The notes beneath the pieces were generated by a model that was given only the letters and a program-made list of their open reading frames with translations, did not search any database and was not told the DNA's origin. A stretch of 24,000 nt of DNA, taken from positions 18,114 through 42,113 of the forward strand of contig JAIBJG010000020.1 in NCBI GenBank assembly GCA_020029475.1, in the 5' to 3' direction. The stretch's first letter is position 1; each line of letters starts with the position of its first letter. This stretch comes from Methanobacteriota archaeon. Lineage in GTDB: Archaea > Thermoplasmatota > Thermoplasmata > RBG-16-68-12. This document shows, in pieces, positions 2,856 through 17,940 of the stretch. The translations under genes were made by a program, and so were the position numbers.

Positions 2856-3230
2856 TCACGGCCCTTCGGACTTCCGGAACGTGCGGGTCTCCGGGTCGAT
2901 CCGGCCCCGCGCGTGCCCCTCCTTGATGCTCAGGGCCATCAGCTGCTCCGCCTCGTCCACGGGCCGGCCGAGCCGTTCCGCGATCGTCTCCACCGACACC
3001 TCCCCATACCCCTCGAGGAGGGCGCCGACCTGCGCGAGGCCGCGGTCCCTCCGGTGCGCGGACCAGAACAACCACGCGAACGCCAAGGCGGGGAACAGCG
3101 CGATCCCCGCGCAGAGGCCCGCCGCGGGCGCGAGGGCCGCGGTTGTCCCCCCCGCGGCGACGGCGAACAGGGCGATCACGGAGAGCACGGCAACGGTGAG
3201 GAGCCCACCGAGTCCGAGGATGAAGTACAC
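2856..3230 (-). CDS. Small membrane protein with a soluble C-terminal, possibly winged-helix-like, domain
   Basis: Two hydrophobic segments are present (ILGLGGLLTVAVLSVIALFAVAA; LCAGIALFPALAFAWLFW). They are followed by EVSVETIAERLGRPVDEAEQLMALSIKEGHARGRID, which looks HTH-like. The start is GTG. The gene sits between pyrH and thpR with 25-nt and 4-nt gaps. Confidence 0.6.
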   Translation of the reverse strand: MYFILGLGGLLTVAVLSVIALFAVAAGGTTAALAPAAGLCAGIALFPALAFAWLFWSAHRRDRGLAQVGALLEGYGEVSVETIAERLGRPVDEAEQLMALSIKEGHARGRIDPETRTFRKSEGP

Positions 3231-13374: not shown

Positions 13375-13758
13375 TCAGGGGGCCGGCGGGGAGTGGCTCC
13401 ATGCTTCCTCGGGGAGCTCCCGGTACACGGGTTCATCCCGGTCCGTCTCCGCCTCCCCCTCGCCGACGATCCGGTCGATGTCCCCCTCGTTCAACTCCCA
13501 GTAGAAGATCCTCCAGTTCCTCCCGCTCAGCAGGAGGACGGTCTCCCACGAGGATCGGAGAATCCCCGCGTCGTGGAGCGCGTAGAACAGCTTGCGGTCC
13601 TCCGGGAGGATCGCGTTGTCGATGATGAAGTTCTCGAACCCGAAGTAATCCATCACGCGGGCGGCCATCGCGTACGCCTCGTCGTGGGGCAGCCCCAGCC
13701 GCTTCTCGATCGCCTTCGCCAGCTTCTCCACCGTGACCGCCATCGGTTGGTCCCGCAC
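13375..13758 (-). CDS. Hypothetical protein (127 aa; GTG 13758 or ATG 13743)
   Basis: Third-position G/C usage is consistent. The plausible globular sequence MAVTVEKLAKAIEKRLGLPHDEAYAMAARVMDYFGFENFIIDNAILPEDRKLFYALHDAGIL… has an acidic C-terminal tail. I recognise no motif. The TATA-like ATCTTAATAC (minus strand, 13794-13785) lies upstream. Confidence 0.6.
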   Translation of the reverse strand: MRDQPMAVTVEKLAKAIEKRLGLPHDEAYAMAARVMDYFGFENFIIDNAILPEDRKLFYALHDAGILRSSWETVLLLSGRNWRIFYWELNEGDIDRIVGEGEAETDRDEPVYRELPEEAWSHSPPAP

Positions 13759-14114: not shown

Positions 14115-14152
14115 GGCCAGCCCTTATTAGCAGGGCGGGACTCGTGTTCTCC

Positions 14153-14554
14153 ATGGAGCCGGACGAGGACGGAGACGATTTCGAACTCCCGCAGCCGCCG
14201 GCGCCCCCAGGTCCTCCCCCAAAGGCAGAGCTCAAGATCCGGGACGCCTCCGTCCGCCGCCGCGGGAAGGCGTGCGTCGTGTGCGGGCGGGCGAAGCCCG
14301 CGTACATCGAGGTCGAGATCGACGGCGTCGCGGAGTACACGTGCCGGGACTGCTACGAGCTCCAGTCCCAGGGCCTCTCCGGCGAGGTCACCCAGTTCTG
14401 CACGAAGTGCGGCACCGCCCTCCTGAAGGGGGACAACTTCTGCGGCCGCTGCGGCACCCCCGCGTCCCTGCGGTGCCCGAAGTGCGGCGCCCGCCCCGAG
14501 GAGGAGGACGCCTTCTGCGGGAAGTGCGGGGCCGCCCTACGCCCGCCTCCGTAG
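14153..14554 (+). CDS. Double zinc-ribbon protein with an acidic/Pro-rich N-terminus
   Basis: Four CxxC pairs are arranged as zinc ribbons: CVVCGR…CRDCY; FCTKCGTAL…FCGRCGTP; RCPKCGA…FCGKCGAAL. ATG 14153 lies about 27 nt downstream of CCCTTATTAGC (14121-14131). The track start GTG 14144 is also possible. The 3' end overlaps the convergent JAB gene by 18 nt. Confidence 0.7.
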   Translation: MEPDEDGDDFELPQPPAPPGPPPKAELKIRDASVRRRGKACVVCGRAKPAYIEVEIDGVAEYTCRDCYELQSQGLSGEVTQFCTKCGTALLKGDNFCGRCGTPASLRCPKCGARPEEEDAFCGKCGAALRPPP

Positions 14555-15514
14555 GACCGTCGCCCGCTTCGGGGCCCGGTACACCTTCTTCGGCAGCGGG
14601 GTCGTCTCGTGGACGCTGAGGGACCCGAGGTTCGCTTCGAACCGCTCCACCCCCGCGAGGTCCACGGCGCTCGCGTCGAACCCCCGCCACAGGAGGAAGA
14701 GGACGTCGTCGAGGATCTCGTTCCGGGTCGCGAGGAGCACCTCGTCCTCGTCCGACCCCGCGACGAACACCGTGGGATCGAGGCGTAGGGAGAGCTCGAC
14801 CCGGTGGGCGTCGTCGTCCCTTTGGATCACCAGACGGTTCCGGATCGCACCCGCCCCGAGGCCGTCGAGCTCCACGGTCCCCCGCCCCACGCTCGCGGAC
14901 CGGACCGCGCGATCGAGGTCCGCGGACACCTTCTTCTCCAGGGCCGCGACGACCCCGGCGGCGTTCGCCTCCGAGACCTTCAGGGAGAACGACGGCGCCA
15001 CGGAGGTCGTGTACCGCTTCAAATGGCCAGCCATGGAGAGGGTCTCCACGATTGCGGGCGTCACGGGGGCGGGGAACCCGTCACGCAGCACGAAGCATTC
15101 CGCGGAACGGCCGTCGGTAACGACGGAGACGAAGTTCTCCCGCCGTGACGCGCGGCTCGTCAGGGTCGCGTCGTCCGTCGCGCTGTGGAAGATCGCGTGG
15201 CGGGTGTCGTCCTTGAACGGGTGGGAGTGGTACAGCCCGACGATCCCGACGTTCCTCGGGTACCGCATCACGATCTCCGCCTCCTCCATGGGGTCCGCGA
15301 TCGCCCCGTACCGGCTCTGGTGCTTGTACCGGGTGGCGGGATGGGCGTCGAGGACGTACGGCTCGCCCCCGACGTAGAATCCGAGGAGCCAGCCGATCGC
15401 CTCCCGGCCCGAGCTCCGGGCGACGTTCCCTGCATGTTGGAGTAACGCCCGCCACGCGGTCCGCAGGATGTGGGCCGGGCCGTTCATCGGCCTCTCCGCC
15501 CGCACGTGCCGCAT
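14537..15514 (-). CDS. JAB/MPN (JAMM) metalloprotease with an approximately 170-aa uncharacterised C-terminal domain
   Basis: The N-terminal domain has the JAMM elements: Glu in SSGREAIGWLLG, then GLYHSHPFKDDTRHAIFHSATD (HxH … SxxD, with a longer-than-canonical spacer). The C-terminal half, from about TLSMAGHLKRY to …VLRRRA, contains no motif I recognise. Two ATGs are possible. The one at 15487 forms an ATGA overlap with the E1 stop codon, suggesting translational coupling. Confidence 0.8.
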   Translation of the reverse strand: MRHVRAERPMNGPAHILRTAWRALLQHAGNVARSSGREAIGWLLGFYVGGEPYVLDAHPATRYKHQSRYGAIADPMEEAEIVMRYPRNVGIVGLYHSHPFKDDTRHAIFHSATDDATLTSRASRRENFVSVVTDGRSAECFVLRDGFPAPVTPAIVETLSMAGHLKRYTTSVAPSFSLKVSEANAAGVVAALEKKVSADLDRAVRSASVGRGTVELDGLGAGAIRNRLVIQRDDDAHRVELSLRLDPTVFVAGSDEDEVLLATRNEILDDVLFLLWRGFDASAVDLAGVERFEANLGSLSVHETTPLPKKVYRAPKRATVLRRRA

Positions 15515-16245
15515 TTCGGGTCACGCTTCCAGTCCACCCGCTCGAGCCGGCCCTCGAGGCCGAAGTACATGAGGTACGGCGCGACGCTCCCGAACCCGAG
15601 GAGCACCTTCAGCGCCTCCTGGCACTGGAGGCTCGAGACGACTGCCATCGTCGTGGGCAGGGAGGTGAAGTGGCACGCCCCGCCGTCCTCCCGCCGGGCG
15701 GGCCGCATCGCGGACCCGTCTTTCAGGGCGGGACGGTTGCACCGGTAGCACGCGGTCTTCCCGGGGATCACGACGTGGACGCTCCCGTTCACGCCGTCCT
15801 CGGAGGCCCCTCCGTCGATGAACGGGACCCGGGCCGCGACGGACCTCGCGTTCAGGAACAGGCGCACCGCGAAGGAGTCCACGCACCCGAGGAGGAGGTC
15901 GCTCTCCGGGATCTCCTCCCGAAGGGCCTCCAGGCCCTTTCCGTCCGTCACGTCGAACGCGTACGACGTGACCCGGACGTCCGGGTTCGCCGCGCGGAGG
16001 TGGTCCCGGATCGCCTCGACCTTCTTCTCCCCGACCTGGTCCGTCCGGTACACGAGGCGGTTCAGGTTCGCCTCCTCGACCGTGTCGTAGTCGAACAGGG
16101 CGAGCTCCCCGACCCCGAGGCGGGCGAGGATCTCCGCGCTCAGGGCTCCGAGGCCGCCGACCCCGACGATCGCGACCCGCTTCCCCCCGAGCTTCGAGAG
16201 GTCCGCGTGGCCGAACAGTCGGAGGCGGGCGTACCGCCCCGTCAC
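15484..16245 (-). CDS. E1-like Ubl-activating enzyme (ThiF/MoeB fold), UBA5-like minimal adenylation domain
   Basis: It carries the nucleotide-binding motif KRVAIVGVGGLGALSAEILARLGVGELALFDYDTVEEANLNRL. Zinc-site CxxC pairs are present (CYRC, CGTC). The candidate catalytic Cys lies in GGACHFTSLPTTM. I set the start at GTG 16245, which overlaps the E2 stop codon (GTGA), giving 253 aa. The track's extension to 16674 overlaps the E2 gene out of frame and looks like non-protein low-complexity sequence. Confidence 0.85.
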   Translation of the reverse strand: MTGRYARLRLFGHADLSKLGGKRVAIVGVGGLGALSAEILARLGVGELALFDYDTVEEANLNRLVYRTDQVGEKKVEAIRDHLRAANPDVRVTSYAFDVTDGKGLEALREEIPESDLLLGCVDSFAVRLFLNARSVAARVPFIDGGASEDGVNGSVHVVIPGKTACYRCNRPALKDGSAMRPARREDGGACHFTSLPTTMAVVSSLQCQEALKVLLGFGSVAPYLMYFGLEGRLERVDWKRDPKCGTCGRRGR

Positions 16246-16745
16246 ATCCAGCCCTTTCCCTTCATGTCCGCGACGACGCTCTGGAGCCAGTAGCTCACCT
16301 CCCGCTTCAGGTACAGGGCGATGGAGGAGTGGTCGTCCCACCAGTAGTTCCTCTCCATGTGCATGTCGCAGATCCGGAGGCCGAGGCTCGGGTCGTCCAC
16401 CTTCCGGTCCGTGTAGTGCATCAGCTCCGGGATCCGGCACGCGGGCGGCACCTGCGGGTACGCGTCCTTCAGGACGAGCTCGATGTCCCACGATCGGCCC
16501 CCGTGGACGACCTTCCCCGTCCATCGGGTCTTCTTCGGGCTCGTCGGGCGGATCGCGAACCACTCGTTCTTCTCGAGGAACCTCAGGTACTCCTCGAACC
16601 GTTCGAGGGCGTACACCTCCTCCGCGGCGCGGTCCTTCCACGCCGGCTCCTTCGGGGACGCGACCGTCGCGCACTGGAGGAAGTAGAAGAGATCGTCGTC
16701 CGTCTTCAGGTGGGCCTCGCCGTAATCCCGGATCCGGAGGGGCAT
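16242..16745 (-). CDS. E2-like Ubl-conjugating enzyme candidate, UFC1-like (non-canonical, no HPN motif)
   Basis: At 167 aa it is the same length as human UFC1. By eye it shares with my remembered UFC1 sequence NEWF (UFC1 NDWF), TRWTGK (TRWFGK), YPQVPPACRIPEL (YPTTAPEIAVPEL) and LRICDMH (KICLTDH). That places Cys126 opposite the UFC1 catalytic Cys. The operon position between a Ubl and an E1 supports the call. Confidence 0.7.
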   Translation of the reverse strand: MPLRIRDYGEAHLKTDDDLFYFLQCATVASPKEPAWKDRAAEEVYALERFEEYLRFLEKNEWFAIRPTSPKKTRWTGKVVHGGRSWDIELVLKDAYPQVPPACRIPELMHYTDRKVDDPSLGLRICDMHMERNYWWDDHSSIALYLKREVSYWLQSVVADMKGKGWM

Positions 16746-16770
16746 CCGGGTGCAGCGTAGGCGGGCCGGT

Positions 16771-16780
16771 GGCTTAAACC
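16771..16780 (-). promoter_or_regulatory. Possible internal TATA-like box (minus strand GGTTTAAGCC) upstream of the E2 gene
   Basis: It lies in the 42-nt Ubl-E2 spacer, with its centre about 31 nt upstream of ATG 16745. That is the same geometry as the other putative leaderless promoters in this window. Confidence 0.3.
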
Positions 16781-16787
16781 GTGAGGC

Positions 16788-17060
16788 CTACAGAATCGAG
16801 GGCGGGAGCGAACCGACGATGCTCGGGTCGATCACGTGGATGTTCGTGGACTTCTCGGCGACCTCGCCCACGGTCCCGCCCGCGATCGGGGAGCCGCCGG
16901 GGTACGTCGCGGTCATGATCCCCGCATCCTTCCCCTGACGCTTCGCGGCGAGGACGAACGCCTCCTGGAACAGCATCTCCTCGGGGACCTTCAGGGTCAC
17001 CGCGGGCTTGTCCGCCTCGGAGATGAAGATGAACCGGAGGGTGATCGCCATGGACGCCAC
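16788..17060 (-). CDS. Ubiquitin-like protein, UFM1-like, with a C-terminal VG followed by a 7-residue tail (SLPPSIL)
   Basis: It is 90 aa from GTG 17060, or 87 aa from ATG 17051. The pattern fits a beta-grasp fold (ITLRFIFI / AVTLKVP / helix MLFQEAFVLAAKRQG / IMTATY / NIHVI). By eye it aligns with human UFM1: [21 protein letters not shown] matches TLKVPEEMLFQEAFVLAAKRQ, and ELRIIPRDRVG-SC matches NIHVIDPSIVG-SLPPSIL. It does not end in GG. Confidence 0.65.
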   Translation of the reverse strand: MASMAITLRFIFISEADKPAVTLKVPEEMLFQEAFVLAAKRQGKDAGIMTATYPGGSPIAGGTVGEVAEKSTNIHVIDPSIVGSLPPSIL

Positions 17061-17132: not shown

Positions 17133-17480
17133 TCAATACGGCGTGAGGCTCGGGTCCACGCGCTGGATCCACGCGTCGATCCCGCCCTCGAGGTTCTTCG
17201 CTTTCGGGAAGCCGAGCCGCCTCAGGTAGAAGACGGCCTGCTCGGAGCGGGAGCCCATCTTGCAGTACGCGACGACCTCCGCCTTCGGGTCGAGCTCACG
17301 GGCCCGCTGCGGGAGCGTCATCAGGGGGATCAGGGTCGCGCCCTCGATCCGGTTCACGGCCCACTCGTCCGGCTCCCGCACATCGAGGAGGACGACCGCA
17401 TCCCCCCGATCGAGCTTCGCCTTCAGCTCCTCCGGGGTGATCGTGAAGGACTCGCCGGTTCCCCGCCTAGACCAGGTCAA
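17133..17480 (-). CDS. Single-domain rhodanese (sulfurtransferase)
   Basis: …VVLLDVREPDEWAVNRIEGATLIP… is followed by the active-site loop YCKMGSRS (Cx5R-type), then GGIDAW. The protein is 115 aa. Its start overlaps the upstream JAMM gene by 14 nt. Confidence 0.85.
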   Translation of the reverse strand: MTWSRRGTGESFTITPEELKAKLDRGDAVVLLDVREPDEWAVNRIEGATLIPLMTLPQRARELDPKAEVVAYCKMGSRSEQAVFYLRRLGFPKAKNLEGGIDAWIQRVDPSLTPY

Positions 17481-17940
17481 TCTCCACCTCCGTGAACGCC
17501 CGCCTCCCGTCGCGGTCGTCGAGGCTCCAGGCCCGGAGGTCGACGGGCTTCCCCTTCTCCACCGCGACGACCACGTACGTGTACCAGGTGAACCCGCGGT
17601 CCACGTCGATCGCGGACGGCCGCGCGGGATGGTCAGGATGGGAATGGAAGAACCCGAGGATCTCGCGCCCGGACCCGGAGAGCTCCTTCGTCAGCCGCAG
17701 GGTCTCCGCGGGGTCCACTCGGTATCGGACGTCGCGGTCCTCCGTCTCGACGTTGCGCGTCGGTCGGAACTCGTCGATCCGACGCGGCGTCGCGTCCGGC
17801 CCCAGGAGATACCCGCACCCCTCCTCGGGGTACGTCTCCTTCCCGTGGCGCTTCATCGCGTCGACGACCGCCTTCGTGATCTGGACCGCGCCTTCGATTG
17901 GTGCGACCCCGGCGGAGCCCTTTGACGCGTCGACCTTCAT
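17467..17940 (-). CDS. Stand-alone prokaryotic JAMM/MPN+ metalloprotease (Mec+/QbsD/HvJAMM-like)
   Basis: The JAMM motif is canonical: PEEGCGYLLG (Glu) followed by GFFHSHPDHPARPSAID (HxHx7SxxD). The protein is 157 aa. A strong SD (GGGAGGGACGGG) sits directly upstream of the ATG, 37 nt after the sufS stop. Confidence 0.85.
   Translation of the reverse strand: MKVDASKGSAGVAPIEGAVQITKAVVDAMKRHGKETYPEEGCGYLLGPDATPRRIDEFRPTRNVETEDRDVRYRVDPAETLRLTKELSGSGREILGFFHSHPDHPARPSAIDVDRGFTWYTYVVVAVEKGKPVDLRAWSLDDRDGRRAFTEVEIDLV

Follow-up and report, generated by a model that had tools for sequence, protein, structure and literature searches.

A predicted UFM1-type modifier with a stop-loss tail in a Thermoplasmata cassette of Ubl, E2, E1 and JAMM genes

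The 24,000-nucleotide (nt) stretch of DNA analysed here (the window) belongs to a soil archaeon of the Thermoplasmata (assembly GCA_020029475.1, contig JAIBJG010000020.1, positions 18,114 to 42,113). On its minus strand lie, in order, the genes of a ubiquitin-like protein (Ubl), a conjugating enzyme (E2), an activating enzyme (E1) and a long JAMM/MPN+ metalloprotease. The predicted fold of the Ubl is that of UFM1, and its open reading frame (ORF) continues for seven codons beyond the glycine at which most of its relatives stop. The features of the cassette are given below, with product lengths in amino acids (aa).

16788..17060, minus strand: UFM1-like ubiquitin-fold modifier (Ubl), an ORF of 90 aa from GTG 17060, more likely 87 aa from ATG 17051
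16812..16814, minus strand: codon of the conserved terminal glycine (Gly83 counted from the GTG, Gly80 from the ATG), predicted site of adenylation and cleavage
16791..16811, minus strand: C-terminal tail SLPPSIL, seven codons after the conserved VG, translated intergenic DNA past a lost stop codon
16788..16790, minus strand: TAG stop codon of the Ubl
16746..16790, minus strand: conserved spacer between Ubl and E2, which contains a TATA-like TTTAAG at 16773..16778, some 30 nt ahead of the E2 ATG
16242..16745, minus strand: UFC1-family E2, 167 aa, catalytic Cys126 (Pfam UFC1, E 3.4e-8)
15484..16245, minus strand: UBA5-like E1, adenylation domain only, about 253 aa (ThiF, E 1.5e-53)
14537..15487, minus strand: long JAMM/MPN+ metalloprotease of 316 aa; MPN domain at the N-terminus, followed by a conserved C-terminal domain of unassigned fold

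Translation of the minus strand showed that the 90-aa Ubl product ends in NIHVIDPSIVGSLPPSIL. The segment 16788..16820 reads IVGSLPPSIL followed by the stop, so that the protein terminates as ...IDPSIVG-SLPPSIL-stop. This agreed with a first-pass annotation of the same DNA, which had reported an end at VG-SLPPSIL. The annotation had also numbered the last residue of the domain Gly83. That number holds if the count begins at the GTG, but the ATG at 17051 (codon 4) is the likelier start, because homologues open with MAITLRF or MPITLRF and the 87-aa protein is exactly what several pipelines had called; the residue then becomes Gly80. In the AlphaFold2 (AF2) model of the Ubl, the predicted local distance difference test score (pLDDT) was 89 for the model as a whole and about 63 for the tail.

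The model pointed to UFM1. When it was compared with the PDB by Foldseek, ranks 1 to 13 were all UFM1, with E values of 7.5e-6 to 4e-4, TM-scores of 0.73 to 0.89 and root-mean-square deviations (rmsd) of 1.2 to 2.9 Å. Most of these top matches superposed at 1.2 to 1.4 Å over about 76 residues, at 20 to 23% identity. SUMO came next, at a TM-score of about 0.62 and an rmsd of about 3 Å. Profile comparison by hhalign aligned the Ubl with human UFM1 in register from residue 1 at E 4e-4, with a probability of only 34%; by comparison, ubiquitin scored 0.27 and SUMO1, aligned out of register, 0.018. The Ubl thus fell short of formal membership in a UFM1 sequence profile, and sequence alone does not place it. 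It shares with UFM1 the closest fold, a single glycine after valine at the mature end, and adjacent partners of the UBA5 and UFC1 types. A sulfur-carrier Ubl would be expected to end in GG, to be served by an E1 of the MoeB, ThiF or MoeZ type, and to lack an E2; the present protein ends in VG and is accompanied by a conserved E2. The parallel with UFM1 drawn in the first-pass annotation was therefore strengthened by the UFM1 fold, the UFC1-family E2 and an E1 closest to UBA5. These results suggest that the Ubl is a UFM1-type modifier, an assignment in which the weak sequence signals agree with the fold and the neighboring genes decide.

The two enzymes were easier to assign. The E2 scored 33.8 bits against the Pfam UFC1 family (PF08694), for which the gathering cutoff is 25, and it is thus a member of that family; the same domain was already precomputed on most of its 106 homologues. 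A profile of the E2 family searched against the PDB matched UFC1 only, over nearly the full length (E 1.3e-8). Cys126 aligned with the cysteine of the UFC1 KIC motif and was conserved throughout (29/29). For the E1, the best PDB match was UBA5 (8e-45, aligned over 239 residues), followed by MoeB (5e-31), and the scores lay far under every NCBIfam cutoff for MoeB, ThiF and UbaA. Its Cys193, within GAC-HFTSLPTTM, aligned with the GVC-AASLPTTM segment of UBA5 and was conserved in 28/29. The zinc cysteines 168, 171, 247 and 250 were also conserved, and the E1 therefore has the Cys4 site with an embedded catalytic cysteine that marks UBA5.

A genome scan with one genome per GTDB species yielded 28 loci (L numbers below) in metagenome-assembled genomes (MAGs) labelled Thermoplasmata or Methanomassiliicoccales. 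The order Ubl, E2, E1 was kept in 28 of 28. The long JAMM came next after the E1 in 25, and the other three end at a contig edge or are masked. One locus, L026, was set aside as an apparent example of a cassette without the long JAMM: it is N-masked directly after the E1 and hence uninformative. In the window, the E2 stop and the E1 start overlap by four bases (GTGA, 16242..16245), as do the E1 stop and the JAMM start (ATGA, 15484..15487). The overlaps suggest that E2, E1 and JAMM are translationally coupled, and for E1 and JAMM such coupling is likely because the JAMM start overlaps the E1 stop.

The C-terminal boundary of the Ubl domain was examined in its homologues. A search for homologues recovered 44 proteins, and every one with a name came from a Thermoplasmata-type MAG; tails were counted in the 41 with an intact C-terminal motif and in the 27 readable loci of the 28. 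V82 and G83 were conserved at 90% or more in the homologue alignment, and the [ILV]VG motif was kept in at least 90% of sequences, while the tails were absent or variable. Exactly 24 of the 41 metagenomic homologues ended at VG, and a stop codon followed the glycine directly in 20 of the 27 loci. Tails of 1 to 12 residues, mutually dissimilar, occurred in the remaining 17 homologues. A likely frameshifted homologue (P0022) had a tail of 21 residues, and one divergent family member had a tail of eight. The short tails of relatives, one or two residues long, were R, Q, C, S, T, HP, RP, QP, RL, TL, FQ, SC, SR and FR. The longer ones were SRPA, RGGEV, TAARVR, SPRPRP, RPRASRPAP, CVAAGGRA, (V/L)VSAPDSVGLTV and GLPALDSGALTV. 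Taken together, about 70 relatives placed the end of the conserved domain at VG without exception, and most of them stopped at that point. Eight or more unrelated kinds of tail were counted. In the divergent low-GC clade formed by L024 to L028, each of the five members had one or two extra residues (FQ, T, SC, SR or FR), and the tail of L001 had 12.

The first-pass annotation had proposed aligning homologues to see whether VG is fixed while the tail varies in length and sequence, and this is the pattern that emerged. Its own caveat, that the conserved domain might run through SLPPSIL, did not hold, given the conservation of V82 and G83 and the large share of homologues that stop at VG. SLPPSIL is best read as evolutionary debris outside the fold. 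As a separate observation, the Ubl at L026:5980-6243, from a Methanomassiliicoccales-labelled MAG, ends VG-SC, a dipeptide tail identical to that of human pro-UFM1; the match is probably a coincidence.

A DNA alignment with the three closest relatives (L001 to L003) located the ancestral stop. L002 and L003 read GGG TAG at this point, and the window reads GGT TCG. L001 has GGC GGG there. Up to the stop position there was no indel between the window and L002 or L003, and the reading frame was continuous. The tail arose by loss of the stop through a single-base change, TAG to TCG. The window has a G+C content of 63 to 71%, and read-through therefore extends for 7 to 12 codons here, compared with only one or two in the low-GC clade. 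A tRNA scan found no tRNA gene in the 24,000-nt window, so nothing there bears on an alternative decoding of TAG.

Because the sequence is MAG-derived and TCG differs from TAG by one base, the tail could be suspected of being an artefact of sequencing or assembly, a frameshift or a mis-called stop. The available sequences made this scarcely credible. Identical tailed proteins of 87 or 90 aa were present on several contigs from NCBI, JGI and ENA, and independent assemblies agreed at position 16810. Near-identical strains carried sister alleles with one or two substitutions inside the tail (SLAPPIL, SLPRSIL, SLPVPIL, SLPAPIL and SLPPPIL), a neighboring subclade carried (V/L)VS(A/T)PDSVGLTV, and 80-aa tail-less forms fell into the same 90%-identity clusters as the tailed proteins. 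The continuous frame shared with L002 and L003 also argues against an artefact. The sequencing frameshift that the first-pass annotation had allowed for was thus not borne out; in its place stood a TAG-to-TCG change reproduced in independent assemblies.

The DNA past the stop (CGATTCTG..GGCCTCACGGTTTAAGCC) was conserved in the window and in L001 to L003, whether translated or untranslated. In the window the frame runs through it to ...SIL-stop. L001, with a single additional base, reads this DNA in a different frame, up to a TAA inside GGTTTAAGCC. Since conservation is irrespective of translation and of frame, the constraint acts on the DNA, and the tail peptide is a by-product. The spacer between Ubl and E2 probably carries an internal promoter of the E2, with TTTAAG as its TATA element, because the distance from this motif to the E2 ATG fits the usual archaeal spacing between TATA and start.

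These observations also bear on the possibility that selection maintains the tail as a propeptide with a function of its own, such as regulation or targeting. Positions 1, 2, 6 and 7 (SL...IL) are constant in the subclade, which speaks for such a role. However, conservation of this DNA extends to relatives that leave it untranslated and to L001, which reads it in another frame; this is better explained by constraint on the DNA, likely the E2 promoter. The middle positions of the tail change non-conservatively (P, R or V), most homologues have no tail, and the pLDDT of the tail is low. A selected propeptide is accordingly very unlikely.

Variation within the subclade with seven-residue tails revealed how differently the domain and the tail evolve. 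Among its eight alleles, 7 of 80 domain positions were variable, all conservatively, and 3 of 7 tail positions were variable, with changes among P, R and V. Per site, allele pairs differed on average by 0.039 over the domain and by 0.199 over the tail, about fivefold more (Fisher p = 0.03). The difference indicates that the domain is under purifying selection in the tailed lineages. Such constraint would follow if the tail is cut off and the protein remains functional.

On the opposite reading, the tail stays on the protein: the stop-loss allele would be inactive or weakened, and the pathway idle or decaying in this lineage. Such a course would suit a tail of purely accidental origin in a family in which most relatives require no processing. 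We nevertheless give it a small chance. The 80-residue domain has remained near-unchanged, with conservative substitutions only, across at least eight distinct alleles and many samples. The catalytic residues of the E1, E2 and JAMM in the window are all intact, and these proteins share 71 to 91% identity with their counterparts in tail-less relatives. If tails killed function, it would be hard to account for eight or more unrelated kinds of tail, and for an entire clade in which a tail of one or two residues is obligatory.

A protease that could remove the tail is encoded in the cassette itself. The ORF of the long JAMM spans 14537..15514, and translation probably starts at Met10 (15487), where the 100%-identical 316-aa protein P0055 also begins. 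It matched Prok-JAB at E 9e-5 with 22.7 bits, below the gathering cutoff of 25. The residues E29, H87, S88, H89, S102 and D105 were invariant in 51 sequences. The AF2 model had a pLDDT of 86.7, and the best Foldseek matches, obtained for the N-terminal MPN fold, were Rpn11 and the Caldiarchaeum Rpn11 homologue (E about 1e-6). The C-terminal half, about 150 conserved residues, had no PDB match among the top Foldseek matches. The protein also has a basic tail, PLPKKVYRxPKR, again with no PDB match.

A second protease gene lies on the other side of the Ubl, next to a rhodanese gene.

17467..17940, minus strand: short stand-alone JAMM of the desampylase type (Prok-JAB, E 2e-22)
17133..17480, minus strand: stand-alone rhodanese, like the C-terminal domain of MoeZ (Rhodanese, E 2.6e-22; MoeZ residues 286-392, E 2.3e-24)

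The short JAMM matched the NCBIfam desampylase model at 3e-23, below its cutoff, and in the PDB it matched 2kcq (1e-24) and PfJAMM1 (6e-8). The first-pass annotation had placed both JAMM genes within 1.2 kb of the Ubl and had named either as a possible maturase or deconjugase. Both ORFs are where it put them, but about 1.3 kb separate the Ubl from the nearest end of the long JAMM, and the two are not equally likely: the long enzyme is syntenic in 25 of the 28 loci, and the short one lies near the Ubl, between SufS and Ubl, only in the window and L001 to L003. The long JAMM is our preferred candidate, on gene order, for both maturase and deconjugase. It is present in tail-less genomes as well, and its conserved job is therefore not tail removal but presumably deconjugation.

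The short enzyme could be considered as the one that trims the tail, with the Ubl perhaps doubling as a carrier of sulfur supplied by SufS and the rhodanese. Its HSHx7SxxD motif is canonical, and both its Prok-JAB and its desampylase-like signals are strong. The gene sits 0.4 kb upstream of the Ubl on the same strand, beside a MoeZ-type rhodanese and SufS, and the high-GC clade with this arrangement is also the one with tails of 7 to 12 residues. Nevertheless, the short JAMM does not track the tails. L002 and L003 possess it and are tail-less, and L024 to L028 are tailed without a short JAMM within 6 kb. Its restriction to four neighborhoods also counts against it, as do the VG end of the Ubl, which is not GG, and the conserved E2 with its invariant cysteine, which favors conjugation over sulfur transfer. 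In the corresponding stretch of L003 (L003:4023-5922), the short JAMM and the rhodanese are separated by a further E1, which is MoeB-like and shares 33% identity with that of the cassette; this points to a distinct module of the SAMP/CysO type that only happens to adjoin the cassette. We therefore consider the short JAMM an unlikely maturase.

The rhodanese lies near the cassette only in the window, L001 and L003. Together, the short JAMM and the rhodanese suggest a second module of the sulfur-carrier type, possibly degraded, that abuts the cassette. An ORF check of the window found no other small GG-ending Ubl as a client of the short JAMM. In the QbsE/QbsD and CysO/Mec+ systems, a JAMM enzyme removes residues past the C-terminal glycine. 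A rhodanese and a cysteine desulfurase are likewise near in the window, but the carriers of those systems end in GG and work without an E2, in contrast to the Ubl here with its E2 of invariant cysteine, and the neighborhood of rhodanese, SufS and short JAMM is not conserved among our loci.

Returning to the long JAMM as the preferred protease, we consider it probable that the Ubl became a pro-protein by accident when its stop was lost, that a JAMM enzyme trims it, and that the E1 and E2 then conjugate it. The ribosome would read 21 further bases of the spacer between Ubl and E2, adding SLPPSIL. A JAMM protease, for which the 316-aa cassette enzyme is the best candidate, would cut the Gly-Ser bond and expose ...IVG-COOH; the predicted C-terminal peptide is STNIHVIDPSIVG for the trimmed Ubl and STNIHVIDPSIVGSLPPSIL for the unprocessed form. 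The UBA5-like E1 would adenylate the glycine and take the Ubl onto Cys193, from which it would be handed to Cys126 of the UFC1-like E2 and joined to target lysines. The same JAMM would later release it from its targets. Loss of the stop codon would be tolerated, and tails could come and go, because the protease is needed anyway for deconjugation. The pro-form itself is a lineage-specific accident, most relatives being made already mature. Cleavage, the choice of protease, conjugation and the targets are all inferred in this scheme.

Several results weigh against the scheme. On the side of the Ubl, in addition to the low hhalign probability, there was no Pfam family at E of 0.1 or less and no NCBIfam match, and BLASTP against human UFM1 gave no match. 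The sole PDB match of the Ubl family profile at E of 10 or less was Trypanosoma brucei UFM1, at E 0.73 and below threshold. A HMMER profile search of 1.8 billion representatives returned 13 matches, either members of the same family or spurious repeat proteins, and no eukaryotic UFM1. The E1 lacks the C-terminal extension by which UBA5 binds UFM1 and UFC1, its UBA5 match stopping at query residue 249. In the long JAMM, the spacer between HxH and SxxD has 12 to 22 residues, compared with the canonical seven, and this loop was modelled at pLDDT below 50. The conserved role of the protease cannot be tail removal when most family members need no maturation, and the short JAMM is the closer one to the Ubl in exactly the clade with long tails.

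A precedent for a JAB enzyme with both jobs in a prokaryotic Ubl operon exists, because BilC both pre-processes BilA, cutting between Gly97 and Ala98, and deconjugates it (PMC10557695). The BilABCD operon likewise combines a Ubl, an E2, an E1 and a JAB/JAMM enzyme. However, the Bil E1 consists of an inactive and an active adenylation domain with a separate CYS domain, whereas the E1 here is a single adenylation domain of the UBA5 type. Its matches to Bub and Cap2, the nearest relatives of the bacterial systems in the PDB, reached only about 1e-9 to 1e-10, compared with 8e-45 for UBA5. Bil also belongs to a phage-defence island, and the present cassette lies among housekeeping genes.

Among archaeal systems, SAMP/UbaA/HvJAMM1 of haloarchaea and the Caldiarchaeum ubiquitin operon resemble the cassette in that Ubl conjugation is reversed by JAMM/MPN+ proteases, and the MPN domain of the long JAMM is nearest to the Rpn11 enzymes. 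SAMPs need no E2 and end in GG, unlike the Ubl here with its E2 and VG end. Caldiarchaeum has a true ubiquitin, a UBC-type E2 and a RING ligase (E3), in contrast to the UFM1-, UBA5- and UFC1-type parts found here.

With the eukaryotic UFM1 pathway the cassette has in common the fold of the modifier, the single glycine after valine, a precursor tail that varies, a UBA5-type E1 with its catalytic cysteine in the adenylation domain, and a UFC1 E2. The differences are also clear. Eukaryotes mature UFM1 with the cysteine protease UfSP, whereas the conserved fourth gene here is a JAMM metalloprotease; no UfSP (C78) was found among the ORFs of the window or the flanking ORFs of L017 and L025, the rest of the genomes not being searched. 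UBA5 carries its UFM1- and UFC1-binding extension, and the E1 here is minimal. UFL1, DDRGK1 and CDK5RAP3 were not seen. The archaeal genes form one operon-like cassette, most members of the Ubl family are tail-less, and the Ubl remains under the Pfam and HMMER thresholds for UFM1. The Asgard homologues of Ufm1 (Nat Microbiol 2026, PMC12962969) are likewise prokaryotic proteins of the UFM1 fold recognised mainly through structure. The family here comes from Thermoplasmata and from Methanomassiliicoccales-labelled MAGs. UBA5 and UFC1 are not mentioned in that paper.

Ufm1 has been described as "absent from Archaea and Bacteria" (Grau-Bove 2015, PMC4327156). UFM1, UFC1 and UFSP2 were later reported to be exclusively eukaryotic, UBA5 having prokaryotic homologues (Picchianti 2023, PMC10183829), and published surveys restrict UFM1 and UFC1 to eukaryotes or to Asgard archaea. 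The literature covered, from which subscription-only papers were missing, offered nothing relevant on an archaeal operon of UFM1, UFC1 or UBA5, and within it the Thermoplasmata cassette is unreported. We see a slightly better than even chance that Thermoplasmata encode a complete and active UFM1-type pathway in which a JAMM enzyme does the maturation and deconjugation of UfSP, the changing tails being the footprint of the protease. If so, the core triad of UFM1, UBA5 and UFC1 predates eukaryotes and is neither an Asgard nor a eukaryotic invention. A four-gene cassette with its catalytic residues intact would shift the origin of the three proteins outside the eukaryote and Asgard frame. It would also offer a minimal system, expressible in bacteria, for asking how a UBA5-type E1 without a C-terminal adaptor recognises its Ubl and E2. 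If trimming of the tail by a JAMM enzyme is confirmed, this would be the first UFM1-type modifier matured by a metalloprotease. A pro-Ubl as such is familiar; the interest lies in the system around it, and the tail is the most testable handle on its activity.

Two further genes beside the cassette recur in part of the loci.

14144..14554, plus strand: divergent multi-zinc-ribbon protein (Pfam DZR and Zn_Ribbon_1), syntenic in 19 of 28 loci
13375..13758, minus strand: DUF6015 protein (Pfam DUF6015, E 8.6e-16), syntenic in 14 of 28 loci

Either protein might act as the missing E3, as an adaptor or as a substrate; the DUF6015 protein has no solved relative in the PDB. Beyond them, the flanking genes varied among the loci. 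A 124-aa ORF at 2856..3230 on the minus strand matched Pfam PCI (E 6.6e-5, 23.5 bits with a gathering cutoff of 22); it is 10 kb away from the cassette and has no established link to it. The wider window contains no defence island, and its setting is one of housekeeping genes, which include ThiD/ThiN, LigT, aRF1, ArgRS, a CitMHS transporter, PCMT and the series SufS-SufU-SufD-SufC-SufB.

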